The notes beneath the pieces were generated by a model. It was not told where the DNA came from, made no database searches, and was given only the letters and a program-made list of their open reading frames with translations. This document shows, one piece after another, positions 5,939 to 44,293 of a stretch of 64,000 nt of DNA. The first letter of the stretch is position 1. Every line of letters begins with the position of its first letter. The position numbers and the translations under genes were made by a program. Source of the stretch: Magnetospirillum sp. (GTDB lineage Bacteria > Pseudomonadota > Alphaproteobacteria > CACIAM-22H2); contig JAPZUA010000001.1 in assembly GCA_027532905.1 (NCBI GenBank), positions 1,111,950-1,175,949 of the forward strand, written 5' to 3'.

Positions 5939-6550
5939 CTAGCCGCGTGTTTTCGCCGCGATGATTGCCAGCGCTGCTTGGAAGGCGGCGGCGGCGTCCA
6001 GATCCGAGGTATCGAGCAGCTCGGCATCGTCGGCGGGTTTCATCGGTGCGGCAGCGCGTTCGCTGTCGCGTCGATCCCGCTCGGTCAAATCGGCGAAAAC
6101 GCGCTCGTATATAGGGGTTTCGCCGCGCGCAAGCAACTCTTTGAATCGGCGCGTGGCGCGCGCCTCTGCACTCGCGGTCACAAAAATCTTCGCAACCTCG
6201 GGCCACGGGCACACGACCGTGCCCACGTCGCGCCCGTCGAGCACCGCACCGCCCGGCTGGCGCGCGAAATTGCGCTGGAATTCCAGCAGGCTGGCGCGCA
6301 CCGCCGGGACTGCCGAGACGACCGAAGCATGCTTGCCCACCGCCTCGCTGCGCAGATCGGCAGCACCAAGGTCGGCATGCGCAAACTTTGCTGCTGCCGC
6401 TTCGGGCGCCAGATTCTCGCGCAAGGCCTTCGACGCAACCGCGCGATAGAGCGATCCTGTGTCGAGATGCGGCAGGCCGAAATGCGCGGCAAGCGCTTTG
6501 GCAAGCGTGCCCTTGCCGGCCGCAGCCGGGCCGTCGAGGGCGATGATCAA
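5939..6550 (-). CDS. cmk: Cytidylate kinase
   Basis: The P-loop [14 protein letters not shown] is present along with CMP-kinase family motifs. A 4-nt overlap with aroA gives the classical aroA-cmk-rpsA operon. Confidence 0.9.
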
Positions 6551-7920
6551 GCTTGCCCCACCGCGATGTCGCCGCCAAGTTCAGCCATCAGCGCAAGGAA
6601 GTTCGGAAAGCTCGTGGCGATGGCGCCGATATCGTCGACCGACACGGTCTGGCGGCTGGCAAGCCCCATCACGAGGAAGCTCATCGCGATGCGATGGTCG
6701 AGATGCGTGGCGATGGCGGGCGTGTTCGCCGCCATGCCGGGCGGAGCGCCGTCGCAGCCTTCGACAATCAGATCGTCGCCGTCGATGCGCACATCCACGC
6801 CGCATGCAGCAAGCCCGCGCGCCACGGCCGACAGCCGGTCGCTTTCCTTGACGCGCAGTTCGCCCAAGCCCCGCATGATCGTGCGGCCGCGCGCGAACGA
6901 CGCCGCGACCGCCAGGATCGGATATTCGTCGATCATCGAGGGCGCCCGATCCGCCGGCACGTCGACGCCGACGAGCGAAGACGCGCGCACATGGATGTCG
7001 CCGACTTCTTCGCCGGCCGCTTCGCGGCGGTCGCCGATATCGAGCGTGGCCCCCATTTCGCGCAAGGTTTGATAGAGGCCCGTCCGCCGCACATTGAGGC
7101 CGACATTGCGCACGACCACGTCCGAGCCCGGCACGATCAACCCCGCCACGACCGGGAAGGCCGCCGACGACGGATCGCCGGGTACGTGGATCGTGCAGCC
7201 GGCAAGCTCGGGCTGGCCCGTGAGGGCGATGCGCGACACGCCGTTTTCTTCGCGCACGTCGAGCGTGGCGCCGAAATGGCGCAGCATGCGTTCGCTATGG
7301 TCGCGCGTGGGCTCCTTCTCGAGCACGATCGTCTGGCCCGGTGCGGAAAGGCCGGCAAGGAGCACCGCACTTTTGACCTGGGCCGAGGGGACGGGCAGCG
7401 CATATTCGATCGGGATGGGGCTGGCCGCACCGATCACGGTCAGCGGCAGCAACACTTTGCCGTCGGCGGCCCCGCGCGCCACGAAGCGCGCCCCCATCTG
7501 CATCAAAGGTGCGGTGATGCGGCCCATTGGGCGGCGACGCAACGATGCATCGCCCGTGAAGACCGAAACGAAATTGTGGCCCGCCACGAGCCCCATCAGC
7601 AGGCGGGCACCCGTGCCCGCATTGCCAAGATCGAGCACGTCGGCGGGCTCGATCAGGCCGCCGATCCCGCGGCCGCGCGCGCGCCAAATCCCTGTGGCTT
7701 CGTCTTTGGAAATCTTGGCGCCCATTTGGCGCATGGCCGCGGCGGTGCGCAGCACGTCTTCGCCCTCGAGCAGCCCGTGCACGACCGTTTCGCCGACAGC
7801 CAGACCGCCCAGCATCAACGCGCGGTGCGAGATCGATTTGTCGCCCGGAACCGCGACGGCACCCGACAAAGAGGCCCCGCGGCGGGCGACGGCAGGGGTC
7901 GGCTTGGATGCGGCTGACAT
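6547..7920 (-). CDS. aroA: 3-phosphoshikimate 1-carboxyvinyltransferase (EPSP synthase)
   Basis: The product is 457 aa. EPSP-synthase motifs are present (LGNAGT...R..G, DKSISHR). Confidence 0.9.
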
Positions 7921-8117
7921 GGGCGAAACCTCGAATTTCCGGGCGGGCGCCGGGTTTTAGCAACCAAGCCCCCCACACGGCAACACGCACGGCAACAAGG
8001 GGCCGCAGCACCAGGGGGCCGCACCCCGCCCGCTGCACCCCGGTTGACAGGGCGGGCCGGACGTGGCATGTCCCGCGCCCGTTCCAAAACGGGCGATTTT
8101 TCGGGGAGCTTCCAGGT

Positions 8118-8444
8118 ATGTCGAAAGCCGAATGGGGTTTGAAGCGGACGTGCCAATCGTGCGGTGCGCGTTTCTACGACCTTACGAAAAGCCCGATCGA
8201 GTGCCCGAAATGCGGTGCGGAATACGATCCGGAAGTGCTGCTGAAGTCGCGTCGCGGCAAAGCGCCGGTCGCAGCGCCGAAGCCCGTCCCGGTCCCCGTC
8301 GCCGACGATGTCGACGCGATCGAGCCGGCGGTGGGCGACGAGGCCGAGGAAGAGGATGCGGTCATCGAAGACACCTCGGAACTGGGCGAGGACGAAGAAG
8401 ACGTCGCCGAAGTGATCGAGAACGTGGAAGACGAGGAACGTTGA
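8118..8444 (+). CDS. TIGR02300-family (FYDLN_acid) zinc-ribbon protein with an acidic tail
   Basis: The product begins MSKAEWGLKRTCQSCGARFYDLTKSPIECPKCGAEY and ends in an Asp/Glu-rich C-terminus. The start was reset to an ATG at 8118. The track ORF begins upstream at an alternative codon. Confidence 0.75.
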   Translation: MSKAEWGLKRTCQSCGARFYDLTKSPIECPKCGAEYDPEVLLKSRRGKAPVAAPKPVPVPVADDVDAIEPAVGDEAEEEDAVIEDTSELGEDEEDVAEVIENVEDEER

Positions 8445-8513
8445 CCGCCGCATCGGTTCGGCATAAATAACCGCCTGCCGCCAGCGGGACCCACCCCGCC
8501 GGCCACGAATTTC

Positions 8514-8589
8514 GGGGCCATAGCTCAGCTGGGAGAGCGCCGCAATGGCATTGCGGAGGTCAGCGGTTCGATCCCGCTTGGCTCCACCA
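8514..8589 (+). tRNA. tRNA-Ala (anticodon GGC)
   Basis: A 76-nt cloverleaf: acceptor stem GGGGCCA/TGGCTCC with the G3:U70 alanine identity pair. The anticodon loop contains GGC. TTCGATCC is the T-loop, and CCA is encoded. Confidence 0.9.
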
Positions 8590-8597
8590 TATAGAAC

Positions 8598-8631
8598 AAG
8601 GGCTTAGCTGGAAACAGCTAGGCCCTTTTTC
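8598..8631 (+). terminator. Rho-independent terminator of tRNA-Ala
   Basis: The hairpin aagggcttagctg-gaaa-cagctaggccctt is followed by TTTTT. Confidence 0.8.
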
Positions 8632-8813
8632 ATTTGATTCTACCACCGTTCTACCACGGCAATGGCAAGATATGGCACTTTACGGCATGGCATTGAGCCC
8701 AAAAATCTTCACTCTCGAGAGTCGGGGCGGCTCTCAGCGACCTGCAAAACGTTCATTTTATACCTTGGCGAAATTTTCTCTGCGCATACATTGATTTTTG
8801 AAGGAGATTGATT

Positions 8814-9011
8814 ATGGCAGCCCGTGAAAATTACAGAGCTCATCAAGCCGCTGAATATCTTCAGATTTCTGCGAGTAGTTTAGCTAAGCGTCGCGTCGCG
8901 GGGTCTGGCCCCCAATTTTGCAAACTTGGGCGGATCGTCGTTTACCGGCGTGTCGATCTCGACGCTTGGTTAAACGAAAATTCCCGCGAAAGCACCTCGG
9001 AAGCGTCATAG
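8814..9011 (+). CDS. AlpA-family phage transcriptional regulator/excisionase-like HTH protein
   Basis: The motif YLQIS.SSLAKRRVAGSGPQFCKLGRIVVYRRVDLDAWL is typical of AlpA/Xis-like MerR-type HTH proteins. An AGGAGA ribosome-binding site precedes the ATG at 8814. The gene lies directly 3' of the tRNA. Confidence 0.75.
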   Translation: MAARENYRAHQAAEYLQISASSLAKRRVAGSGPQFCKLGRIVVYRRVDLDAWLNENSRESTSEAS

Positions 9012-9519
9012 TAGGTCCGGTCCTCGGTCGCGGAGTAGGCGGGAGCGACGCCGACGGCCCGCGCGCCCTTTTGGGAACGCCGTAGCGGACCGATGGCGGC
9101 TCGGGCGGCTACCGTCGATTCGTGGGTTAGCGTTGGTTTGCAGACGCCCCCCATAAACCTGAGGACCACCGATGACCGGTGAGATCATGAACCTTCGGCT
9201 GCTTTTGTCTATGAATCGGCGCTTAACTTTGACCACGGCATTAATATGAAGGATCCAAAGGACCTAAGCGCAGATCCGGTTGTTTAGAGGGCTCACGATT
9301 GAACGCTGAATAGCCGTCGATTATACTCCGACCAAGATCAAACGCTTTCATTCTGATGTCCCTACGCGCCCACTGAATTGAGCGCCGCTTATAATTGTTT
9401 CTCGAAGGCAGTTTTGTTAAGCCCGGCCAATTTCGCAAGATTTATCGCAATGCTCGCAGTGTCACTGCTTGATGTGCTGGTGGGACGCTGGCGCGGGTAC
9501 CCCCCTCTAAGTCTGCCAA

Positions 9520-9783
9520 CTATTTCTTCTTATTGTGAGCGCGTATGCCGATGGGGCGTGTCCCGACGGCACCACGATCTGCCGGCAAATCGCTGGGCTT
9601 CAACTTTTCAATCAATAGTTCGACCGTCGCGGGGATTCGGCGGATGCCTTGCTCCCAGTTTTTCAACGTACCTTTCGCAACGCCCAAGACCTCGGCCGCT
9701 TGCGCTTGCGTGAGATTGTTTTTGGTACGCCAGCTATAGAGCGCGTCGGGACCGAAATTTTTCATTCCCTCAAAATACGTCAT
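9520..9783 (-). CDS. XRE-family HTH transcriptional regulator
   Basis: The sequence LTQAQAAEVLGVAKGTLKNWEQG is a classic XRE helix-turn-helix. The gene is divergent from the 9881 gene. Confidence 0.8.
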   Translation of the reverse strand: MTYFEGMKNFGPDALYSWRTKNNLTQAQAAEVLGVAKGTLKNWEQGIRRIPATVELLIEKLKPSDLPADRGAVGTRPIGIRAHNKKK

Positions 9784-9811
9784 TGGTGCCTCGAGTGCGA
9801 GAGAAAATCCT

Positions 9812-9839
9812 TTACAAAGACACCAATGGTGTCTATAAT
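9812..9839 (+). promoter_or_regulatory. Sigma70-like promoter with embedded palindromic operator
   Basis: TTACAA (9812-9817), then 16 nt, then TATAAT (9834-9839). The spacer is exactly the palindrome GACACCA-A-TGGTGTC (9819-9833). This sits 40 nt upstream of the 9881 start, and the divergent XRE gene starts at 9783. Confidence 0.6.
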
Positions 9840-9880
9840 GCTTTCATCATCACGCTGCATCCCACAAATCGGAGACCGTT

Positions 9881-11242
9881 ATGTCCGACGACATCCCCAT
9901 CGCCGACCCGCTCGATTCCAAGATTTGGACGGCTGATCCCAGCCGGAGCTGGGATATCCGCCAATCGCGGCGCATCTGGAACTTTGTTTTGGCGTCTTGC
10001 CCTCTGATCGCGGCGCATCTAAGGGAACGAGGACCCAACGACATCGAGCCGGATCTGTTCGCGGATCTCGCGGTGCGCGCCTCCCGCGCCAAACTGTCGG
10101 ATGATGTCGTCGGGTCGCTCTGGTTTCTGGCCGCAAGCCGAAGCCATGTCGCTGCGGCGGGGGCCCTGGTTGGCATGCTCGCCCAATCTTCAAATACCAC
10201 GTCAATATCGATTGAAAGGCGACGGGCGATCCGGCATTGGCGCCGTCGTTTGGCGCGGGTCGAGGTGCTGGACGATGCAAAGCAATTGACGGCGGAGTTT
10301 TCTGCTTTGGTCAAATCTGCTGATCTGGACGAGAGACTTGCGGCCGATCGGTCTCGGCCCGAGTCCGGTCGCGAGCTGATGGTCCTGGCGCCAGCACTGG
10401 CGGCTGAGATCGAGCAGGATCGCGAGATAAAACCCTACAAGAGCCTCGGCGAAATGATGCGGCTTTGGCGACCGAAGACCTCATTCGACGTGCTCCAGAA
10501 AGTTCTGCACTTGGAGTTTCCGCATCTTGGCAGTGCTATCGATACGGTATTGGGTTCGGTTATGTCGGGGGGTGCCGATCGCGAACCGCCGGTGTTGTTG
10601 GTCGGCGCCCCCGGCCTTGGCAAGGACGCGCTGTGGCGGCGTGCATGCGAGCTTACGGGGCGGCCCTTCGTGGAATATGAGCTTGCTGGGACGGCCGATT
10701 CCCGCGCGCTCAAGGGCACCGCACGCGGCTGGTCTTCTCGGAATCCGAGCTATCCCGCCCAGGTCGCGCGGCGGCTGCAGGCGGCAAATCCCTGCGTTCT
10801 AATGACGGAATTGGACAAAGCGGGCGGGAACCCCGCGAATGGATTGATCGTCGATACCCTGCTCGCATGGCTGGAACCCGGATCGCGTGGACATTGGTTC
10901 GACGAGGGGCTGGGCGTGCCGTTGGATTTGAGCCGATTTACCTTCGGGTTCTCAGCGAACCGTATAGATCCGCTGCCGGGTCCGCTACGAAACCGGCTGC
11001 GGATCATCGCGATCAATGCGATCGCGCCGACACATGTCGATCTCTTGCTCGCCAATGTTCGTCGTCGCCACGCGACGCAACTGGGCGTTCGCGAGGGCGA
11101 CGTTCCCGAGCTCGACAAGCGGGTTGTTGCGCGGCTGCGTCAGGTCGCGCGGCAAGGCGGGTTGAATCTGCGGCTGCTGGAGCGGGTCATGCGCGCCGCT
11201 TTTCCTGAGCGGTCGCAAGCCATTTTCGCAAAATTCCATTAG
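9881..11242 (+). CDS. Lon-type AAA+ module protein with no protease domain and a non-canonical Walker A/B (GKD / TE), plus a novel N-terminal domain
   Basis: Residues about 230-450 align motif by motif with the Lon AAA+ module. GAPGLGKD matches GPPGVGKT. G..D...L.G..R.W.S..P matches the Lon [21 protein letters not shown] signature. NPCVLMTELDK matches NPLFLLDEIDK. FSANRIDPLPGPLRNRL matches ATSNSMNIPAPLLDRM. The N-terminal 220 aa are helical with no recognised domain. There is no Lon S16 protease region. A GGAGAC ribosome-binding site is present. Confidence 0.7.
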   Translation: MSDDIPIADPLDSKIWTADPSRSWDIRQSRRIWNFVLASCPLIAAHLRERGPNDIEPDLFADLAVRASRAKLSDDVVGSLWFLAASRSHVAAAGALVGMLAQSSNTTSISIERRRAIRHWRRRLARVEVLDDAKQLTAEFSALVKSADLDERLAADRSRPESGRELMVLAPALAAEIEQDREIKPYKSLGEMMRLWRPKTSFDVLQKVLHLEFPHLGSAIDTVLGSVMSGGADREPPVLLVGAPGLGKDALWRRACELTGRPFVEYELAGTADSRALKGTARGWSSRNPSYPAQVARRLQAANPCVLMTELDKAGGNPANGLIVDTLLAWLEPGSRGHWFDEGLGVPLDLSRFTFGFSANRIDPLPGPLRNRLRIIAINAIAPTHVDLLLANVRRRHATQLGVREGDVPELDKRVVARLRQVARQGGLNLRLLERVMRAAFPERSQAIFAKFH

Positions 11243-11254
11243 GGGCAGACCCCA

Positions 11255-11647
11255 ATGACACCGCAATCAATCTCAGTCGCGGTCACTTGGCCGAGTGATG
11301 TCTATCGCGAGTTCAAGGTAACTGTAACCAATGCCGCGTCTAAACAGGAAGTACCGAGCTACATTGACGCGGCTGCGAGGGGCATTAAAGAATGCGACAG
11401 CGTTCCGCGTACGGCGATCTTGAGACCGGCGCCACGCGTTTCGGTGATCCGACTTGCCGCCGATCCGACCTGCCGGTGTCAGATCAGCCGGGTTTCGAGC
11501 CTCGCGCCAAGAGGAAATTGGTCAAGGTTCCGGTTTGCGGTGAAGTGGGTGTCGCGCCTTGTCGCTGTGTGCGATGGATATACCGCCATGCGCGACTCGG
11601 TAATTCCGATTGCGGCAACACTCGCCGCGTTTTTTTTCATCAGATAG
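11255..11647 (+). CDS. Hypothetical protein, a possible partner of the Lon-like gene
   Basis: It starts 13 nt after the 9881 gene stops, on the same strand. The first 50 residues look protein-like. The second half is Arg/Cys-rich and may be an over-extension or a frameshift. Confidence 0.3.
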   Translation: MTPQSISVAVTWPSDVYREFKVTVTNAASKQEVPSYIDAAARGIKECDSVPRTAILRPAPRVSVIRLAADPTCRCQISRVSSLAPRGNWSRFRFAVKWVSRLVAVCDGYTAMRDSVIPIAATLAAFFFIR

Positions 11648-12273
11648 TCTTGCTGTGACTCGGCTTCCAAGGTTGACCCCGCCATTTCTACATCTATCAA
11701 ACCGATACTCCATAGAGTCTGGAGCGTTTCGGCGAAAAGAATCAACGTTAAAGCGTTCCCCTCTAGACCATCGAATCTGCGCTTAGGTCCATTGGCTTCT
11801 GCTTATTTATGCCGGGGTCAGATTTCAACGCCGGTTCACAGGCGGAAGCACTACAAAAAAATGGCTGCACTCGTCACTCAGATATCGGCCGCCAGCACCG
11901 GCGACGTTCGGCGAGATACAGCCTCTCAAACCGGTCGCCGGGATGCAGTAATCTCTCATTCGGCTTGGTTCAAAAACTCGATCAGGTCACTTGAATAACA
12001 TCGTTAATGCCCCGTCAACGCGGAGGTTTCGGCATTTAGGAAACCGGCGATGCATCCGAAAAAGAAGCTAGGCCTGAAAAGTCGATTTACTAGGATGATC
12101 TGCGGTGCGAGCGACCGACGTAAATTTCGTTGTTATGATCGACGACCTCGAAACTGCGGTGGCTATTGATCCTTTGTCGTATTGCGCACCGCGGCCGTAA
12201 GCTGGACCGAAAGTCGTTGGAGACGATACGCCTGATGGCGGTCGAACGGGTTCGCGATGGCGAAGCAGCGACG

Positions 12274-13527
12274 CTAAATAGGCAAGTCATTGGGATTCAG
12301 CTTAGGCTCAAGCTCTGCAGACCAAGAAAATGGTACCCCAATTGCGGCTACGTTCAGATCTGGGCGTCCATATCGCTGGAACGTTTTGGGATCGGAGTGT
12401 CCCATCATTGTGAGTCGGTCGCGCAGGGACAGATTGGTATCTTTGAGCAACGAAGCAAATCGATGGCGCAATACACGCGGCGTTACGAGTTTTCCGTCCT
12501 TTCCAAATATTTCACTCATGATCGCGGTGACCCTGTCATAGGCCTTCTTTGGCGACTTGACCCGCACAACCCGTAGGCCCTCCGGACCGGTCGCCTGCAA
12601 AAGCGCTCTAGTCCATGGCGCATCAGCCTTTACGGTAATACGGCGAACGCCAAGGCCAACATCTTTTTCTTTGCGGACCTTGACTGGCCGCAACTCGATT
12701 TCAACCAAATTGCAGCCTGGTGATCGGATGCTAACACCAAGAGCGATTTCTTCTGGGCGTGCGCCTGCCGCAAGCATAATACAGATTGGCAAATACCAAA
12801 TGCCGTGCGTGCGAGCGGCCTCCTCTAATTTGAATTCCCAATTTGGCGGAAGTCTTTTTAGACGTTCCCAGTATCGCTTTCGAGCGGGTGCCTTTTTGTA
12901 AGATGGTTGGGCAGACGTATCAAAAAGCGTTTTAGTAGCCCAAACGCAAAATTCGAGTGCCTGCAGCGCATATTGCCGCTCCCCATCATCTGACTTGCAG
13001 CAAATGTTGTTCCAATAATCCAAGGCGCTAAAAATCGCGCATTCGAGCCAGATGAGGCATGCCGTATGAACTTTCTTTCGATGCCCACCTGAAAATCTTC
13101 GGAGGTCGAATCCGTCGGTTCTTGAGCACTCCGCCTTATAAATTTTTTGGTAGGCGCGTTCTGTTTGCGCTGTTCGCACTGCATCAATTCGCGATCGCCA
13201 TTTTTCGCCGATAATATTTTGCGTTTGCGTCAAATGATCGATTGCGATTTGTATTCTTTCGAATTCTTGGTCTATCAGTTCGCCGTGTCGCTTTTCGCTT
13301 AAGAAAGAATGGTACTCTTCTGGCTCAAGCGCGTCGGCCGCGAATTCATATTCGAAGTATCGTCTTTCCTCGCCCCCCTCCCTTATTCTTCCCGGGGGAA
13401 GATAAGAGGGGGAAGATGATGTTGGAGATAGTGTAGGCACTTGGGCATGCGCCCGGGTTGAGCCCACCGAAGCGAGACCGCTAGATGCGGCGAGAAGCGA
13501 TGATCCTATTTTATCGGTATTGAACAT
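12274..13527 (-). CDS. Tyrosine recombinase / phage-type integrase
   Basis: The C-terminal catalytic region carries R...HxxR (LRHRFAS)...MGHSD...Y (FQRYGR) motifs. The N-terminal 200 aa are atypical. This is the distal end of the tRNA-Ala island. Confidence 0.75.
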   Translation of the reverse strand: MFNTDKIGSSLLAASSGLASVGSTRAHAQVPTLSPTSSSPSYLPPGRIREGGEERRYFEYEFAADALEPEEYHSFLSEKRHGELIDQEFERIQIAIDHLTQTQNIIGEKWRSRIDAVRTAQTERAYQKIYKAECSRTDGFDLRRFSGGHRKKVHTACLIWLECAIFSALDYWNNICCKSDDGERQYALQALEFCVWATKTLFDTSAQPSYKKAPARKRYWERLKRLPPNWEFKLEEAARTHGIWYLPICIMLAAGARPEEIALGVSIRSPGCNLVEIELRPVKVRKEKDVGLGVRRITVKADAPWTRALLQATGPEGLRVVRVKSPKKAYDRVTAIMSEIFGKDGKLVTPRVLRHRFASLLKDTNLSLRDRLTMMGHSDPKTFQRYGRPDLNVAAIGVPFSWSAELEPKLNPNDLPI

Positions 13528-14268
13528 GGTGGCTCCTTTCCTCGGCGACAGAAACAGCGCCGTGTTAGAGACAACATATTAGTTTTGATCGGAATGGGCG
13601 CTTATACCGCTTTTTTTCGTACTACCGGCATTCACTTTTTTTCAAAAGCCCGGGCTCCAGGTCGGCATCTACGGCATCAGATAAATGGCCGCCAGACCAT
13701 TAAGTCACTAAAATCTTTATAATTAACACGGCAGCAGCTAGCCGGACGGCGTCGCGGATCGTCGTATATGCCTCGGAGCCTGCAATCTCCCCGTTGCCAA
13801 GATTGATGAGACCACCGTCTTGTATCCCGATGATCGTGTCCCCATCGGATCTGGTCATTCCAAGAAGTGTCTTGATGCCGGACGCGGTCGGCGTGTTATC
13901 GATATTGGCGACACACTGCACGTCATTGCTTTAGCCAGAATTAAGGGATCCCAATATTTACATTATAAATGTGTAAATTTTAGTATCTTTGTCGGCCCCG
14001 CCTCTAAATCGTGTCTCTTACATGTCCTTCGAAAATGTTGATTTCGCCGTCCAGTTTGAGTGACCTGACTGAAGTACTCCACTGGATCTGTAGAAATCGG
14101 CAAATTCGAACACTTGTTGTCTGTGCTATTTTGCCAGAAGACCCGCAACGGCATCACTTGATTAAGGTTGGACGGAGATCGAGGTGCGCATGTTACGAAT
14201 TTCTTGTGGCGTTAGACTTCACGAACTAGGAACCAGACGAGCTCCAACACAGACATGTCGACAGTCCA

Positions 14269-14985
14269 TCAGCCGCCAGCACCGCGCGCCGTTGCCAACC
14301 CTGCAAGATGATGCAGAACTTCGTCAGCTTTCATGACGTCGGCGTACTTGTGATGCAGATCGAAAAGGTTGATCTTGTGGATCAGATCCGAGCGATCGAA
14401 GGTGCATTCTTCGACGACCGAAATGTGATATCCGCCCGAATAGCCATCAATACAAGTTGCTCTGACGCAGCCTGAAGTGCTCTCGCCGCACACGATTAGG
14501 CTGCGCACCCCAAGCATCGTAAGGTGCGATCCCAGAGGTGTTCCGGCGAACGCCGAGGCGCGCTGTTTGACGATGACGACATCTTCCGGGGCCGGCGACA
14601 GTTCGGGATGGATTTCGTAGTCGTCAGGCGATGAAGTCATCCGCTGCCGACGTGTCGGTTCGACCCCGCCTGGCTTGCTTAGTGGACGCGCATCCGACGT
14701 GCTGTAGAAAATGGGGATGCTTGCGCGTCGGGCTACCGCAAGGAGCCTCTTTGTTGGGTCCAGCGCATTCCAGGCGTTGATTCCGCACGAACTGGGCCAC
14801 TGCGCCTGAACGTCGACTGGCGGCTTGCGGCCGCCACGATATGCCGAGTTATAGAGATCGACGGCGATGATGGCAGGGCTCGGCCCGACGAACGTGCGAC
14901 GGGCGTAGGCACTGTAGATCGTGAGCGTGTCGCGATCGACCACGTCTTTCCAGCAGTGGTCTTCAAACGCTTCGATTTCTGCCAT
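14269..14985 (-). CDS. Isochorismatase-family cysteine hydrolase (amidohydrolase)
   Basis: The motif IVCGESTSGCVRAT with a catalytic Cys is typical of the isochorismatase/CSHase/maleamate-amidohydrolase family. Confidence 0.75.
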   Translation of the reverse strand: MAEIEAFEDHCWKDVVDRDTLTIYSAYARRTFVGPSPAIIAVDLYNSAYRGGRKPPVDVQAQWPSSCGINAWNALDPTKRLLAVARRASIPIFYSTSDARPLSKPGGVEPTRRQRMTSSPDDYEIHPELSPAPEDVVIVKQRASAFAGTPLGSHLTMLGVRSLIVCGESTSGCVRATCIDGYSGGYHISVVEECTFDRSDLIHKINLFDLHHKYADVMKADEVLHHLAGLATARGAGG

Positions 14986-15038
14986 GGTTCAAGGCTCCTG
15001 ATCTGTGAATTGGGTGGCGATGCGCGATGCGCCCGCAA

Positions 15039-16346
15039 TCAGTTTTTGGCGCCGAGACCCGCCCGGAACTCAGGATGAGCCACCGGCTTCCTAGTCGATG
15101 TATCCGGCCTGCTATCGCCTGCCTCGATGAAGGTGACCGCAATTGCGGCCACGAAGCACAGCAGTCCGGAAATCACGAAGGCAGAAAAGTAGTCGCTATA
15201 TGTCACTCGGATCAGCGCTGCAAAGGCAGCCGCCGAGGCCCCTCCCAACTGGTGGCACACGAACACCCAGCCGAATACCAGCGGTGCGCGCTCGCGGCCA
15301 AACGTATTGGCCAATATGCGGACGGTCGGTGAAACGGTCGCGAACCAACCCAGACCGAAAAATGCAGCAAATATCGACATGGTATAGATATCGTCAAACG
15401 AGAACGGCAGATAGAGAAGCGATACCCCTCTGACGCCGTAATAGATCGCCAACAGGCTGCGATTGTCGAACTTGTCCGAAAGCCAGCCCGACAGGGAAGT
15501 GCCAAAGAAATTGAACATACCCATCGTTGCGAGAAGCGCCGCTCCGGTGATCTCTGAATATCCGTGATCGACGCAGGCAGGAATCAGGTGCGTCCCGAGC
15601 AATCCGTTCGTCGATGCGCCGCAGACAAAAAATGTCCCACTGATCAACCAAAAATTTCGGTTTGAACTTGCATTGCGAAGCGCCAGAAATGCGAGTGCGA
15701 AAGGATTTTCATGTCGGCTGGAGATCGGCTCGATCGGTTGCGTCTCGCCGTAAGGCAACATGCCCACGTCGGATGGCCGATCTCGGAAGAAAATCACGAC
15801 GAGCGGCAGCAGCGTGCAAAGTACGCCAACGATGCAAACAAGCGTGATACGCCATCCGTAGGCAGAATTGACGCTAGCCATCGCGGGCAGGAAAATCAGT
15901 TGGCCTGTCGCGGCAGCCCCCGAGAATATCCCGATGACTAGGCCTCGTTTCGTCGTGAACCATCTGGACGCGACCGTTGCGGCGAGAACCGTCGCCAGAA
16001 AGCCGGTACCCGTTCCGACGAGAACGCCCCACACGACGATCAACTGCCAGACGTGCTCCATGAAGGCTGTCGCTGCGATTGCCCCGGCGAGGACGAGAAG
16101 CGCGACGAGGATGCATCGCCGAACGCCATATCGTTCCATGATCGCGACCGCAAACGGCGCAATGAGCCCATAGAGCAGGAGATTCAAAGATACGGCGAAG
16201 CTGATCGTCGCCCGAGACCATCCGAATTCCTGCTCAAGCGGCAGTATCAGGACACCGGGCGTTGCCCGTATTCCGGCACCGGCCAAGAGGACGAGGCTTG
16301 TCACGCCGACGATGATCCAGCAATAGTCGATCGGCAGTTTTCTCAT
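15039..16346 (-). CDS. MFS transporter
   Basis: A 12-TM hydrophobic profile with MFS signature loops. Confidence 0.8.
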   Translation of the reverse strand: MRKLPIDYCWIIVGVTSLVLLAGAGIRATPGVLILPLEQEFGWSRATISFAVSLNLLLYGLIAPFAVAIMERYGVRRCILVALLVLAGAIAATAFMEHVWQLIVVWGVLVGTGTGFLATVLAATVASRWFTTKRGLVIGIFSGAAATGQLIFLPAMASVNSAYGWRITLVCIVGVLCTLLPLVVIFFRDRPSDVGMLPYGETQPIEPISSRHENPFALAFLALRNASSNRNFWLISGTFFVCGASTNGLLGTHLIPACVDHGYSEITGAALLATMGMFNFFGTSLSGWLSDKFDNRSLLAIYYGVRGVSLLYLPFSFDDIYTMSIFAAFFGLGWFATVSPTVRILANTFGRERAPLVFGWVFVCHQLGGASAAAFAALIRVTYSDYFSAFVISGLLCFVAAIAVTFIEAGDSRPDTSTRKPVAHPEFRAGLGAKN

Positions 16347-16411
16347 GATTTCGTGGTTCTTCTTCGTCCAGAATTTGAAGCGAACAGATCCTGCCGCTGA
16401 GCGAAATCCGT

Positions 16412-17236
16412 CTAGTATGGCTTCTCGCCCAGCAGCGTCAGTCGACGAAGCAGTCTGCGCTCGCTTGAGTCAAAATCCGTTCTAGCATGCAGGCAGGACC
16501 GATTGTCCCAGAACATCAGATCGCCGACGGTCCATACGTGCTCGTAAACATAACTTTGCTGCTCTTGATGCGCGAAAAGCTCGTTCAAGATGGCATCACT
16601 TTCATCTCTCGGCATTCCGACGATGTACTGGGTCAGTAGCCTGTTTACATAGAGCGCCTTTCGGCCCGTCGGAGGGTGTGTCCGGAAAATCGGATGAATG
16701 AAACTTCTGGGTCCGAGGTTCGCCGACGACGGTCGAAGCGTACTGACCGTGTCGTAGCTATGCATCGCTGACTTTCCAGACAGCGCGGCCTTAAGGTGTG
16801 TCGGCAGGTCGTCGTACGCCTGAAGCGCATTGGCGAAGAGGGTGTTCCCGCCTTTCGACGGAATCTCCAACGCATAGAGCATCGTTCCGGTCGCTGGCTT
16901 TTCGATATAGGTCTGATCCGAGTGGAAGTGCATTTCGCCGTCGGGTAGGGAGCCGATCAACTTCCCGTCTTCCCGAATGTTCGAGATCAGCATGATCGCG
17001 GGATTCGATTTCGCTGCACGCTCGGCGTTTGCCGTTTTTGCAAGCGGTCCGAAACGTTCTGCAAATCGTATCTGCGCGTTTTCGCCGATCTTTTGACCCC
17101 GGAACAGGATCACACAGTGCCTTTCCCACTCCTGCCGAATACGGGAAAATTGGTTTTCGGTGAGGTCTTCCGAAAGGTCGAAACCAACCGCTTCAGTGCC
17201 GATAGCTTCCGAAAGGGGCCTAAACTCAAGCGCCAT
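16412..17236 (-). CDS. TauD/TfdA-family Fe(II)/2-oxoglutarate-dependent dioxygenase
   Basis: An HxD...H iron triad is present (HSDQTY...H) with the TauD-like C-terminus WDNRSCLHAR. An ATG at 17236 has a GGGAGA ribosome-binding site. Confidence 0.8.
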   Translation of the reverse strand: MALEFRPLSEAIGTEAVGFDLSEDLTENQFSRIRQEWERHCVILFRGQKIGENAQIRFAERFGPLAKTANAERAAKSNPAIMLISNIREDGKLIGSLPDGEMHFHSDQTYIEKPATGTMLYALEIPSKGGNTLFANALQAYDDLPTHLKAALSGKSAMHSYDTVSTLRPSSANLGPRSFIHPIFRTHPPTGRKALYVNRLLTQYIVGMPRDESDAILNELFAHQEQQSYVYEHVWTVGDLMFWDNRSCLHARTDFDSSERRLLRRLTLLGEKPY

Positions 17237-42284: not shown

Positions 42285-43295
42285 ATGGCCCGGAACTCCC
42301 TCCTTGAAGTCGAAAACGTTTCGGTGTCTTTCAAATCGGCGCAAGGACCCATTCGCGCCGTCCGTGACGTCAGCTTTCGGATAAATCCCGGCGAGATCGT
42401 CGCGCTTGTCGGCGAGTCGGGGTCGGGGAAATCCACGACTGGCCTGGCTACAATGCAGTTGATCCCCTCGGCAACGGTATCGGGCCGCATATGTCTTACG
42501 CGAAAAGACGGGACCAAAGCCGATCTGGTGTCATTGAGCGAATCCGACATTCGCAGGGTCCGCGGCAACGAAGTGGCGATGATTTTCCAGGAGCCGATGT
42601 CGTCGCTCGATCCGGTCTTCACGATCGGAACGCAGATGTGCGAAGCGGCGAGGGTCCACCAGCGCCTCTCCTATCGAGAAGCCTATGCCGCATCGATAAA
42701 GGCCCTTGAAGCGGTCGGCATGCCTGATCCCGAAAAATGCATGGAGACCTACCAGCACAAGCTGTCGGGCGGCATGCGGCAGCGCGTCATGATCGCGATG
42801 GCCTTGAGCAGCAAGCCCTCTCTTCTCATCGCCGACGAACCGACGACCGCGCTCGATGTCACCATCCAAGCCCAGATCGTCGAGTACCTGAAGCGTATCC
42901 AGAAACAGACCGGAATGGCGATTCTGTTCATCACTCACAATCTCGGGCTCGTTGCCGAAATCGCCGATCGCGCCATCGTTATGTATGCCGGGGAGATCGT
43001 CGAATCGGGCAGTGTGTCGGAACTGTTCACGCGCCCCCGGATGCCATACACCTCCGGTCTCTTGAAATCGTTGCCACGTCTTGGACGGAAGAAGACACTC
43101 GGCACGCCGATCGAGCCTATTCCCGGCAGCCTTCCGAGCCCTCTTGCGCTTCCAAGCGGCTGCAAGTTCCATCCTCGTTGCGGCCACTTCGTCGCCGGGG
43201 TCTGCGACACGGCCGTTCCCGAACTCGAATCCAGCGACCAGGCGCATCAGGTTCGCTGCGCCCGCTGGCGCGACATCGCGAGGACAGCGCAATGA
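42285..43295 (+). CDS. ABC transporter ATP-binding protein (DppD-like)
   Basis: Walker A (GESGSGKST), the signature LSGGMRQR, Walker B, and a C-terminal oligopeptide-ABC extension. Confidence 0.9.
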   Translation: MARNSLLEVENVSVSFKSAQGPIRAVRDVSFRINPGEIVALVGESGSGKSTTGLATMQLIPSATVSGRICLTRKDGTKADLVSLSESDIRRVRGNEVAMIFQEPMSSLDPVFTIGTQMCEAARVHQRLSYREAYAASIKALEAVGMPDPEKCMETYQHKLSGGMRQRVMIAMALSSKPSLLIADEPTTALDVTIQAQIVEYLKRIQKQTGMAILFITHNLGLVAEIADRAIVMYAGEIVESGSVSELFTRPRMPYTSGLLKSLPRLGRKKTLGTPIEPIPGSLPSPLALPSGCKFHPRCGHFVAGVCDTAVPELESSDQAHQVRCARWRDIARTAQ

Positions 43296-44293
43296 GTTCG
43301 GAAATGGCACCGCTTCTGCAGGTCGAAGGGCTGAGGAAATGGTTCGACATCACGCGCGGCGTATTCGGCCGCAAGGTCGGCCAGGTGAAGGCCGTCGACG
43401 ACGTTTCTTTCACGGTCCGCTCGCGTGAGGTTTTAGGATTAGCGGGCGAGTCGGGGTCGGGAAAAACCACGATTGGCCGTTCCGTCCTTCGCCTCGTCGA
43501 GCCAAGCGCGGGCCGTGTTGTTTTCGACGGCACTGACGTGACCTCTCTGAACACAGCGGACCTCCGCCGATTTCGGCGCAGGATGCAGATTATCTTTCAG
43601 GATCCGCTCGCGGCCCTGAACCCGCAAATGACGATCGAGGAGGTTTTAAGCGAACCCTTGATCGTCCAAGGTATCGGCCGCAGCGACGCTGATCGACGCA
43701 ACCGAGCCGTGGAACTGCTCGATAGTGTGTCGCTTTCAAGCGACTATCTTAAGCGCCGTCCCGGGGAAATGTCCGGCGGTCAACGGCAGAGAATCGTCAT
43801 CGCCCGCGCGCTCGCCGTGAACCCGGAGTTCATCGTCGCGGACGAGCCGGTTTCGGCGCTCGACGTATCGATCCAGGCACAAATCATCGCGCTTTTGATC
43901 GAGCTGAAGGGTCGCCTTGGTTTGTCCATGCTCTTCATTTCCCACGATCTCGCGGCAATGGAATACATCTCCGACCGAATTGCGGTTCTTTATCTCGGTC
44001 GCGTCATGGAGATCGGTCCAAGTTCCGAGGTCTGCGGCAATTTCAAGCATCCCTATACGGAGATGCTGATCTCGGCCGTCCCGCAACCCGAGCCCGGATA
44101 CCAGCGCAAGATTTTTCCGGCAGGCGAGATTCCGAGCGCTGCGTCTCCGCCCAGCGGCTGCGTATTTCGGACTCGCTGCAGCTACGCACGGCCTGAATGC
44201 GCGCAAATTGTTCCGCAGTTGCGGAAAGTGGCCGAAGATCATTACACCGCATGTATCCGCGATGATTTATCCCTCTCGAGGGTGCTGCTATGA
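43292..44293 (+). CDS. ABC transporter ATP-binding protein (DppF-like)
   Basis: Walker A (GESGSGKTT) and the signature MSGGQRQR. The ATG at 43292 overlaps the previous stop (ATGA). The 518-aa track ORF is over-extended. Confidence 0.9.
   Translation: MSSEMAPLLQVEGLRKWFDITRGVFGRKVGQVKAVDDVSFTVRSREVLGLAGESGSGKTTIGRSVLRLVEPSAGRVVFDGTDVTSLNTADLRRFRRRMQIIFQDPLAALNPQMTIEEVLSEPLIVQGIGRSDADRRNRAVELLDSVSLSSDYLKRRPGEMSGGQRQRIVIARALAVNPEFIVADEPVSALDVSIQAQIIALLIELKGRLGLSMLFISHDLAAMEYISDRIAVLYLGRVMEIGPSSEVCGNFKHPYTEMLISAVPQPEPGYQRKIFPAGEIPSAASPPSGCVFRTRCSYARPECAQIVPQLRKVAEDHYTACIRDDLSLSRVLL

Follow-up and report, generated by a model that had tools for sequence, protein, structure and literature searches.

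A 64,000-nucleotide stretch of a Magnetospirillum sp. genome (contig JAPZUA010000001.1, positions 1,111,950 to 1,175,949; hereafter, the window) encodes a 453-amino-acid AAA+ ATPase (positions 9881 to 11242 of the window, forward strand). This protein is a member of the Lon clade that has no S16 protease domain. In its nucleotide site, an aspartate follows the lysine of the P-loop, and the aspartate that usually precedes the catalytic glutamate of Walker B is replaced. Judging from the sequences of its relatives, the altered site is under purifying selection, which points to a selected relocation of the carboxylate and not to decay. Together with an XRE-family repressor and a small basic protein, the ATPase forms a conserved cassette of three genes. 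The kind of protein, a Lon-clade AAA+ ATPase, is known; the relocated active-site carboxylate and the uncharacterized cassette appear to be new. (Below, homologous loci and proteins are designated by L and P numbers, respectively.)

A Lon-type ATPase without a protease domain

The AAA family of Pfam matches residues 238 to 375 of the protein (E = 8.7e-8), and the NCBIfam model for Lon ("lon", TIGR00763) matches across model positions 356 to 559 of 795, which is the ATPase part (E = 1.7e-19). The score against TIGR00763 is 69.8 bits, far from the curated cutoff of 608, so the protein does not qualify as a LonA. When we compared the ATPase to the sequences in PDB with phmmer, we found only Lon entries, down to E = 2.5e-14; the next match was midasin (E = 0.42). 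A structural search also placed the ATPase domain in the Lon clade and not in an unrelated AAA+ clade. The protein contains a helical-repeat N-terminal domain (residues 1 to 165), Lon-like helices before the AAA+ module (residues ~197 to 232), an alpha/beta subdomain (residues 235 to 378), and a lid (residues 383 to 450); both the Lon-type AAA+ fold and the helical bundle that precedes it are present. The N-terminal half is all-helical, with weak Sel1- or TPR-like matches, and does not match the N-domain of LonA. The LonA N-domain is beta-rich.

The original prediction, which was made from the window's sequence alone, was that a Lon-type AAA+ module is present here without its protease. The Lon-only matches in PDB, the structural search, and a search for the missing domain all agree with this. 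The ATPase ends at the lid, without an S16 domain, and the members of its clade are all 441 to 466 amino acids long. When we compared a full Lon sequence to the 64-kb window with tblastn, it matched positions 10592 to 11155 only, and the protease domain had no match (E > 1). This rules out a hidden protease domain or a longer, frameshifted gene that includes one.

The altered nucleotide site

LonA is the best match to the ATPase by both sequence and structure, and the positions of the P-loop, the aromatic residue of pore loop 1, the Walker B glutamate, the sensor-1 asparagine, the arginine finger, and the sensor-2 arginine all align. Besides the missing S16 domain, the differences from LonA are the loop (GTARGW instead of GHRRTY), the GKD of Walker A, and [TSNG]E in Walker B. 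In the HMMER alignment, GAPGLGKD lies opposite GPPGVGKT, and VLMTELDK lies opposite LIDEIDK. Walker A (GAPGLGKDA, 10604 to 10630, forward strand, as are all the segments of this gene) does not fit the classical pattern GxxxxGK[ST], as Asp249 (codon GAC, 10625 to 10627) is at the usual position of serine or threonine. Walker B (CVLMTELDK, 10793 to 10819) does not fit hhhhDE: in VLMTE, Thr309 (codon ACG, 10805 to 10807) is at the usual position of aspartate, and the catalytic Glu310 is kept.

The other expected residues (sensor-1 Asn, arginine finger, sensor-2 Arg, and pore-loop aromatic) are all present. The segment from 10949 to 11005 includes sensor-1 Asn360 (FSANR) and the arginine-finger segment LRNRLRI (Arg372), which align with TAN and DRME of Lon. 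The lid segment GGLNLRLLERV (11156 to 11188), which includes sensor-2 Arg431, aligns with EAGVRSLER of Lon. In the equivalent of pore loop 1 (LKGTARGWSS, 10709 to 10738), Trp284 is opposite the tyrosine of Lon's GHRRTY. We take that tyrosine to be the pore-loop aromatic residue of Lon, which would put Trp284 at the position of the pore-loop tyrosine. A "Lon-specific" loop had been predicted here, and by position it does align with Lon's, but its sequence is GTARGW and not GHRRTY.

The relocated carboxylate is conserved in one clade

Our alignment of 157 ATPase domains, taken from the proteins and loci that were retrieved, contains 19 with aspartate after the P-loop lysine (the KD clade) and 138 without. 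This aspartate is found in 19 of 19 aligned members of the clade and also in the homolog at L024. At the Walker B aspartate position, the 19 KD domains have threonine (11 domains), serine (6), asparagine (1), or glycine (1), and never aspartate or glutamate. In the other 138 domains, the lysine is followed by threonine or serine in 136 cases, by isoleucine in one, and by asparagine in one, and the Walker B position is aspartate in 128 and glutamate in 10. GKD never occurs together with an acidic Walker B residue in the 157 domains, nor does GK[ST] with a nonacidic one.

We masked both of the swapped columns before building a tree of these domains. The KD clade was monophyletic, with no other tip inside it, and was recovered in 96 of 100 bootstrap replicates and, with finite distances, in 147 of 150. 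Within the clade, the identity of the AAA modules falls to 41%. On the tree, the basal branches have serine at Walker B and the crown group, to which the window's ATPase belongs, has threonine; asparagine and glycine are each confined to a single lineage. The site was originally described as a reciprocal exchange of threonine and aspartate, and this does not hold across the clade, as the Walker B position may be T, S, N, or G. Because that position varies, what stays the same throughout is that the carboxylate has been relocated; the literal reciprocity in the window's protein is an accident of the crown group. On the other hand, the idea that the pair is conserved across homologs, rather than being peculiar to a lone degenerate copy, is borne out by the 19 clade members, and the wider relatives have canonical motifs.

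Several lines of evidence show that the site is under selection. Asn360 and Arg372 are invariant across all 157 domains; Lys248, Glu310, and Trp284 are invariant in the KD clade; and the sensor-2 Arg431 is retained in 18 of the 19 clade members and in 118 of the 138 others. The ratio of nonsynonymous to synonymous substitution rates (dN/dS) for the ATPase is 0.16 to 0.18. Asp249 is encoded by GAC in some clade members and by GAT in others, and the Walker B serine by both AGC and TCG. The Walker B codons for asparagine (AAT) and glycine (GGT) are each one step from GAT, which encodes aspartate, and still the acidic residue is absent. Clade-specific changes accompany the altered site at A255, R261, L268, L311, G343, F357, R396, and A423.

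Might this instead be a degenerate Lon-like gene in decay, with the KD/TE pair as selectively neutral damage? Both changes fall on residues that have been called strictly conserved (PMC9599734), and the clade is rare: when we scanned 185,579 species-representative genomes, we found 2 loci, only one of which was of the KD type. However, the low dN/dS, the full-length open reading frame (ORF) in about 20 diverged homologs, the invariant Asp249 with its synonymous codons, and the conservation of the other functional residues all argue against decay, which we consider very improbable. In effect, dN/dS, conservation, and codon variation refute the idea that this is a pseudogene.

One member of the wider family, P0163, has GKN together with a normal DE. 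The neighbor-joining tree groups it with two other tips as the sister of the KD clade, a placement that was not bootstrapped. Because asparagine is a one-step codon intermediate between threonine and aspartate, the GKN of P0163 may be left over from the evolution of GKD.

A conserved three-gene cassette

The ATPase gene would be the first gene of a two-gene operon. The second gene (11255 to 11647, forward strand) begins 13 nucleotides past the stop codon of the ATPase gene and encodes a basic protein of 130 amino acids with one hydrophobic helix near its C terminus. That this small ORF occurs together with the ATPase had been proposed, and our data support it: every one of the 15 KD-clade loci whose sequence extends beyond the stop codon has a downstream ORF, and for three more contigs that are known from gene tables only, a small gene is listed just downstream. 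The ORF starts 11 to 15 nucleotides past the stop codon in the window and in L001 to L003, L006 to L009, L012, and L018. In L020, L021, L022, and L024, it is shorter and starts 40 to 51 nucleotides past the stop codon. Gene callers missed it in L001/L002, L003, and L006. In one group of loci, the small ORFs can be aligned, with C73, R74, W98, and R101 invariant, and their dN/dS is 0.33 to 0.52, versus 1.2 to 1.5 in two alternative frames. A terminator-like hairpin followed by a run of eight T's (11611 to 11637, forward strand) marks the putative end of the operon.

Every version of the small protein is basic and contains a single helix of moderate hydrophobicity. We observed two layouts. In one (such as in the window, 11255 to 11647), the N-terminal part is long and the hydrophobic helix is C-terminal; in the other (L020, 4437 to 4715; L021, 4414 to 4656; L024, 3196 to 3420), the helix is central and the C terminus is rich in lysine and arginine. 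The two layouts may be permuted versions of one protein or unrelated proteins that fill the same position; their homology is uncertain.

The third member of the cassette is an XRE-family repressor of 87 amino acids (9520 to 9783, reverse strand; Pfam HTH_3, E = 1.9e-8), whose gene lies 97 bp upstream of the ATPase gene and is divergent from it. The helix-turn-helix (HTH) domain of the repressor is at residues ~15 to 58 (nucleotides 9610 to 9741), and its invariant residues are also common to homologs. In an alignment of nine loci, the HTH is followed by an invariant C-terminal tail, L.P.D.P...G..G.RP (residues 59 to 86, nucleotides 9526 to 9609). An XRE protein with this tail is encoded upstream of the ATPase in all 15 of the KD-clade loci with sequence there, and its dN/dS is 0.06. 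When we searched for homologs of the repressor, we found 47 full-length clusters (E <= 5e-21) and then a jump to HTH-only matches (E >= 3e-9). Three of the most divergent tail-bearing XRE proteins are each still paired with a protein of 461 to 465 amino acids and a small downstream ORF. The solved structures closest to the HTH are cro/C1 and HigA-2 (E = 2e-5 to 5e-4, HTH only), and matches to the MqsA family are below the cutoff. The arrangement may be compared with type II toxin-antitoxin modules that have an XRE/HigA-like antitoxin, in which an antitoxin-type HTH gene adjoins its partner; here, however, the XRE and ATPase genes are divergent and are not cotranscribed. We rejected the possibility that the repressor is a member of VC1465/XafT or MqsA, as the scores are far under the cutoffs for these families.

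A sigma-70-type promoter (TTTACA-17-TATAAT, 9811 to 9839, forward strand) matches the consensus at 11 of 12 positions and is predicted to drive the ATPase operon. In its spacer is a putative operator, the perfect palindrome AGACACCA-A-TGGTGTCT (9818 to 9834). A third half-site, CATTGGTGCCT (9781 to 9791), overlaps the start codon of the XRE gene; it forms an inverted repeat with 9818 to 9828, to which it is 91% complementary. All ten of the other loci that we examined have the same layout of −35 box, 17-nucleotide spacer, and −10 box, with a dyad-like element in the spacer. Several of these dyads are exact palindromes; examples are TACTCCA.TGGAGTA in L012, ACTAGTAT...ATACTAGT in L020, and ACACATACA.TGTATGTGT in L024. 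A fixed layout with lineage-specific dyads is what would be expected if the repressor and its operator coevolve. By binding the dyad in the promoter spacer, the divergent XRE protein would keep the operon off.

How the altered site might work

The serine or threonine of Walker A is a direct Mg2+ ligand in P-loop nucleoside triphosphatases (NTPases). Its partner is the aspartate of Walker B: in a survey of 3136 Mg-NTP catalytic sites, Kozlova et al. (2022; PMC9599734) described these two residues as strictly conserved, linked by a short hydrogen bond, and proposed that the pair is the universal proton-relay module of P-loop NTPases. The original prediction treated both residues as Mg2+ ligands. 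This is correct for the Walker A residue but not for the Walker B aspartate, which is a hydrogen-bond partner of the serine or threonine and, where the survey discusses variants of Walker B, is said to touch a water molecule that is bound to Mg2+ instead of touching Mg2+ itself (PMC9599734). The survey listed a few exceptions to the conservation of the pair: glycine after the lysine in nucleoside monophosphate kinases, and glutamate (or, in one kinase, asparagine) at the Walker B position. Aspartate after the lysine is not among the exceptions listed, although the list covers solved structures only and does not prove uniqueness (PMC9599734). Similarly, no report of "GKD" in combination with Walker A turned up in a text search of one literature library, which is not proof of uniqueness either, and a search for a protease-less Lon-like family or a swapped Walker A/B pair found nothing relevant.

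Because the canonical serine or threonine and aspartate form a hydrogen bond (PMC9599734), the two swapped positions are adjacent in space, and shifting the carboxylate between these neighbors would keep one acidic group beside Mg2+. We propose that the carboxylate left the Walker B strand (hhhhDE) for the position one residue past the P-loop lysine (GKD), where Asp249 would ligate Mg2+ directly and replace the hydrogen-bonded pair. If GKD were combined with DE, the two carboxylates would probably clash electrostatically, which would explain why the residue in place of the Walker B aspartate is in every case small and uncharged. There is a precedent for supplying the function of the Walker B aspartate from elsewhere in the fold: in MglA, it comes from a neighboring strand (Kanade et al. 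2020, as cited in PMC9599734). Our case differs in that the aspartate has moved into the P-loop, and MglA belongs to the TRAFAC GTPases and not to the AAA+ proteins.

The conservation of the pore-loop aromatic and of the rest of the catalytic residues argues for a working site. The protein would be a Lon-clade AAA+ remodeler whose protease domain was lost or was never present, and its helical-repeat N-terminal half is probably a partner-binding domain. The site would bind Mg-ATP and turn it over, possibly slowly, and this turnover would drive the Trp284 pore loop in a ring (a hexamer), so that the substrate is threaded. We infer that Asp249 ligates Mg2+, that hydrolysis is retained, and that the protein forms hexamers and threads its substrate. 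The reading as a whole (a Lon-clade remodeler with a relocated carboxylate and a Mg-ATP site that still works, encoded in an XRE-repressed mobile cassette) seems somewhat more probable to us than its negation. The clade offers a natural test of whether the carboxylate must sit on the Walker B strand and whether Mg2+ needs a hydroxyl ligand. A lineage with swapped chemistry, with the rest of the site kept, and under purifying selection is also a ready test of the proton-relay model (PMC9599734).

Several points weigh against this reading. First, since the clade is monophyletic, the two positions changed together only once in evolution, and it is the persistence of the pair, not its repeated origin, that speaks for coupling. 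Second, in the NTPases that have been studied, replacing either the serine or threonine after the lysine or the Walker B aspartate abolishes activity, and the only AAA+ precedents for a residue other than serine or threonine after the lysine (asparagine in torsinA and in DnaC of Escherichia coli) hydrolyze ATP very little and are possible switches (PMC9599734). Third, the small protein has no relatives in Pfam, NCBIfam, PADLOC, PHROGs, or PDB. Fourth, neither the ATPase nor the small protein has any match in PADLOC-DB v2 at E <= 1, and the XRE protein has only generic HTH matches; the absence of a match to known defense systems had been anticipated by the original prediction. Fifth, we found no homologs in a phage collection (using tblastn). 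Finally, the rest of the island that contains the window's cassette is catabolic.

Another explanation, raised in the original prediction, is that the rewired site binds nucleotide with little or no turnover and that the protein is a clamp or scaffold and not a motor; as a flat claim, this goes beyond the evidence. Walker B mutants with asparagine in place of aspartate retain NTP binding (PMC9599734), and a carboxylate that ligates Mg2+ directly could over-stabilize the Mg-ATP state. The ATPase resembles torsinA and DnaC in that another polar residue replaces the serine or threonine after the lysine (PMC9599734, Fig. S7), but in those proteins it is asparagine and not aspartate, and their function and context are unrelated. 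Also, torsinA is shown with its Walker B Asp170 kept, no change in Walker B is reported for DnaC, and no compensating change is described for either (PMC9599734). In a pure switch, we would expect the residues for hydrolysis and threading to drift, yet Glu310, Asn360, Arg372, and Trp284 are invariant across 19 members with as little as 41% identity (and Arg431 is found in 18 of the 19). This is suggestive only, and the argument is weakened by DnaC, which retains its catalytic glutamate (PMC9599734). Overall, we think that a nucleotide-binding switch is rather unlikely.

Another alternative is that the ring translocates on nucleic acid instead of threading protein, as RuvB does on DNA. RuvB belongs to the same AAA+ superclade as Lon, one of the Lon entries in PDB is labeled "DNA-binding ATP-dependent protease La," and the cassette is on mobile DNA. 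We view a nucleic-acid motor as quite improbable; the reading that we prefer is a protein remodeler.

The wider family

We used the ATPase as the query in an exhaustive search of 1.84 billion cluster representatives and found 165 relatives at E <= 1e-30. Because most of them are 440 to 550 amino acids long, the wider relatives also lack the protease. The search flags a large unannotated family of protease-less Lon-like ATPases on plasmids and islands. Within this family, the KD clade is rare, with about eight clusters (at 50% identity) among the 1.84 billion representatives. A protein that is identical to the window's ATPase is annotated as "AAA family ATPase" in a metagenome-assembled genome (MAG) of Magnetospirillum, and the other named members of the clade are from MAGs of Tagaea and Azospirillum and from Telmatospirillum.

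The relatives with canonical motifs (P0013 to P0015 and P0023 onwards), which are annotated as "AAA family ATPase" and are from alphaproteobacterial plasmids, have the same protease-less architecture and a GTARGW-type loop, and several of them adjoin an HTH regulator, as in the KD clade. They differ in having GK[ST] with D/E-E, in that their HTH neighbors do not have the conserved tail, and in that their other neighbors include metallophosphoesterases and DUF6634. The canonical relatives adjoin metallophosphoesterase genes in three unrelated loci (L014, 6763 to 8266; L015, 1 to 621; L017, 3970 to 4833), perhaps another conserved partnership within the wider family. Downstream of the canonical ATPase in L017 is an ORF that resembles DEDD-type 3'-5' exonucleases (7314 to 7805; Rv2179c-like, E = 2e-6). 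A possibly similar ORF, without a match in Pfam, is downstream of the KD-clade ATPase in L021 (4694 to 5272).

Two other Lon relatives with nonstandard activity are LonC and BrxL. BrxL carries a Lon-protease-like domain. Neither LonC nor BrxL appeared among the PDB sequence matches to the ATPase, and the defense models of PADLOC did not match it. In PMC13069640, LonC is described as having no ATPase activity and as keeping its protease function, which distinguishes it from the window's ATPase.

The replaceable slot and the role of the cassette

The original prediction also placed the ATPase gene on a tRNA-linked island, divergent from an XRE repressor and with an operator in its promoter, and all of these features are indeed present. 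The left edge of the island is a tRNA-Ala(GGC) gene (8514 to 8589, forward strand), which was identified by ARAGORN and by Rfam (tRNA, 61.5 bits); no other match was found when we searched positions 8000 to 14500 against Rfam. The GC content is ~67% before the tRNA, falls to ~55% (50 to 62%) right after it, and remains low to the end of the window. Just inside the island is a gene for an AlpA- or excisionase-like protein (8808 to 9011, forward strand; Pfam HTH_17, E = 7e-7; phrog_66 excisionase, E = 1.4e-6), which is part of a conserved left arm.

The same tRNA gene flanks the cassette in L024, a syntenic locus from a Telmatospirillum MAG. Using blastn, we found that positions 6000 to 9114 of the window (aroA, FYDLN_acid, tRNA-Ala, and the AlpA-like gene) are 91% identical to L024 and that positions 14073 to 16701 (isochorismatase, MFS, and TauD) are 98% identical, with nothing matching in between (9115 to 14072). 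Both genomes have a version of the cassette in this nonmatching gap, which is therefore a replaceable slot of the tRNA-Ala island. The ATPase from L024 (GPAAIGKD ... YSELDR) is 37% identical to the window's ATPase, and its operator dyad is different. A divergent tyrosine recombinase gene (12274 to 13527, reverse strand; Pfam Phage_integrase, E = 2.3e-4, which is below the cutoff; phrog_1 integrase, E = 9.5e-8) also lies in the variable slot and is absent from L024. Its translation includes a box-II-like LRHRF...GHS...Y, and its long N-terminal region has no match in Pfam.

We did not find a second copy of the 3' end of the tRNA in the window, even when allowing 3 mismatches. Also, there is no direct repeat of at least 16 nucleotides that involves the tRNA, and positions 8540 to 8800 and 11600 to 16000 do not share any k-mer of at least 10 nucleotides. 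Since the ends of the island could not be defined by repeats, we relied on synteny with L024 instead.

At other loci, the cassette adjoins integrases (L006 and L007), a Mob_Pre relaxase (L020), insertion sequences, a JAB-ThiF / Multi_ubiq-E2 pair and an HTH+M78 pair (L001), or a Fic gene (L012). On the contig that encodes P0203, it is near a BrxR-like regulator and an SNF2/NOV_C helicase. The cassette would travel as a unit in variable slots of integrative or mobilizable elements of the Rhodospirillales. New conflict systems are often discovered in places such as this replaceable tRNA-Ala slot.

The role of the cassette is most likely conflict (defense, addiction, or exclusion) or control of the element; we infer this from its surroundings. 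A defense or toxin function had been suggested from the genomic context. The context agrees in part, as the cassette is in a variable island slot and some homologs are near candidate defense or mobility genes, but the window's island is otherwise catabolic. Thus, the evidence for a conflict-related role is circumstantial and the role is plausible, and control of the island itself is a serious alternative. The stronger joint claim, that GKD/xE is a fully working site with the aspartate ligating Mg2+ and that the cassette is a new conflict system with a protease-less Lon-type unfoldase as its effector, strikes us as unlikely; if it holds, this would be the first example in nature of a Walker B carboxylate that has moved into Walker A.

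If the cassette controls the element, then it might be an immunity or early-gene module, with the XRE protein as a CI-like repressor and the ATPase as the first product upon derepression, acting in excision, replication, or transfer. The divergent repressor and operator are laid out beside AlpA-like and recombinase genes, the allele-like replacement of cassettes with different operators at one tRNA-Ala site resembles heteroimmune regions, and a relaxase or an integrase is adjacent in L020, L006, and L007. However, the cassette also occurs without any recognizable mobility gene in the sequence available (L003 and L010), the recombinase is absent from L024, and no replication or transfer genes accompany the cassette. 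We regard element control as possible but, on this evidence, less than likely.

Other observations

Right after the tRNA-Ala gene, within the block that is conserved in L024, is a strong hairpin with a 13-bp stem and a T-run (8598 to 8627), which is probably the terminator of the tRNA. The low-GC genes after the cassette (14073 to ~64000) include isochorismatase, MFS, TauD, 3-hydroxyacyl-CoA dehydrogenase, Mo-hydroxylase, and a TRAP transporter. This catabolic block looks to have been recently exchanged between genera, because its first 2.6 kb is 98% identical to the Telmatospirillum sequence, versus 91% for the housekeeping flank on the aroA side.

The cassettes that encode P0005 (L006, 13788 to 17386) and P0004 (L012, 1 to 5720) flank the same Mnh/Mrp antiporter operon on opposite sides, which suggests that this operon is a second recurrent insertion neighborhood. 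Finally, the window contains a 34-nucleotide direct repeat (42411 to 42444 and 43445 to 43478; 91% identical, 1034 bp apart); each copy probably falls in the P-loop region of one of two tandem ATPase-type coding segments.

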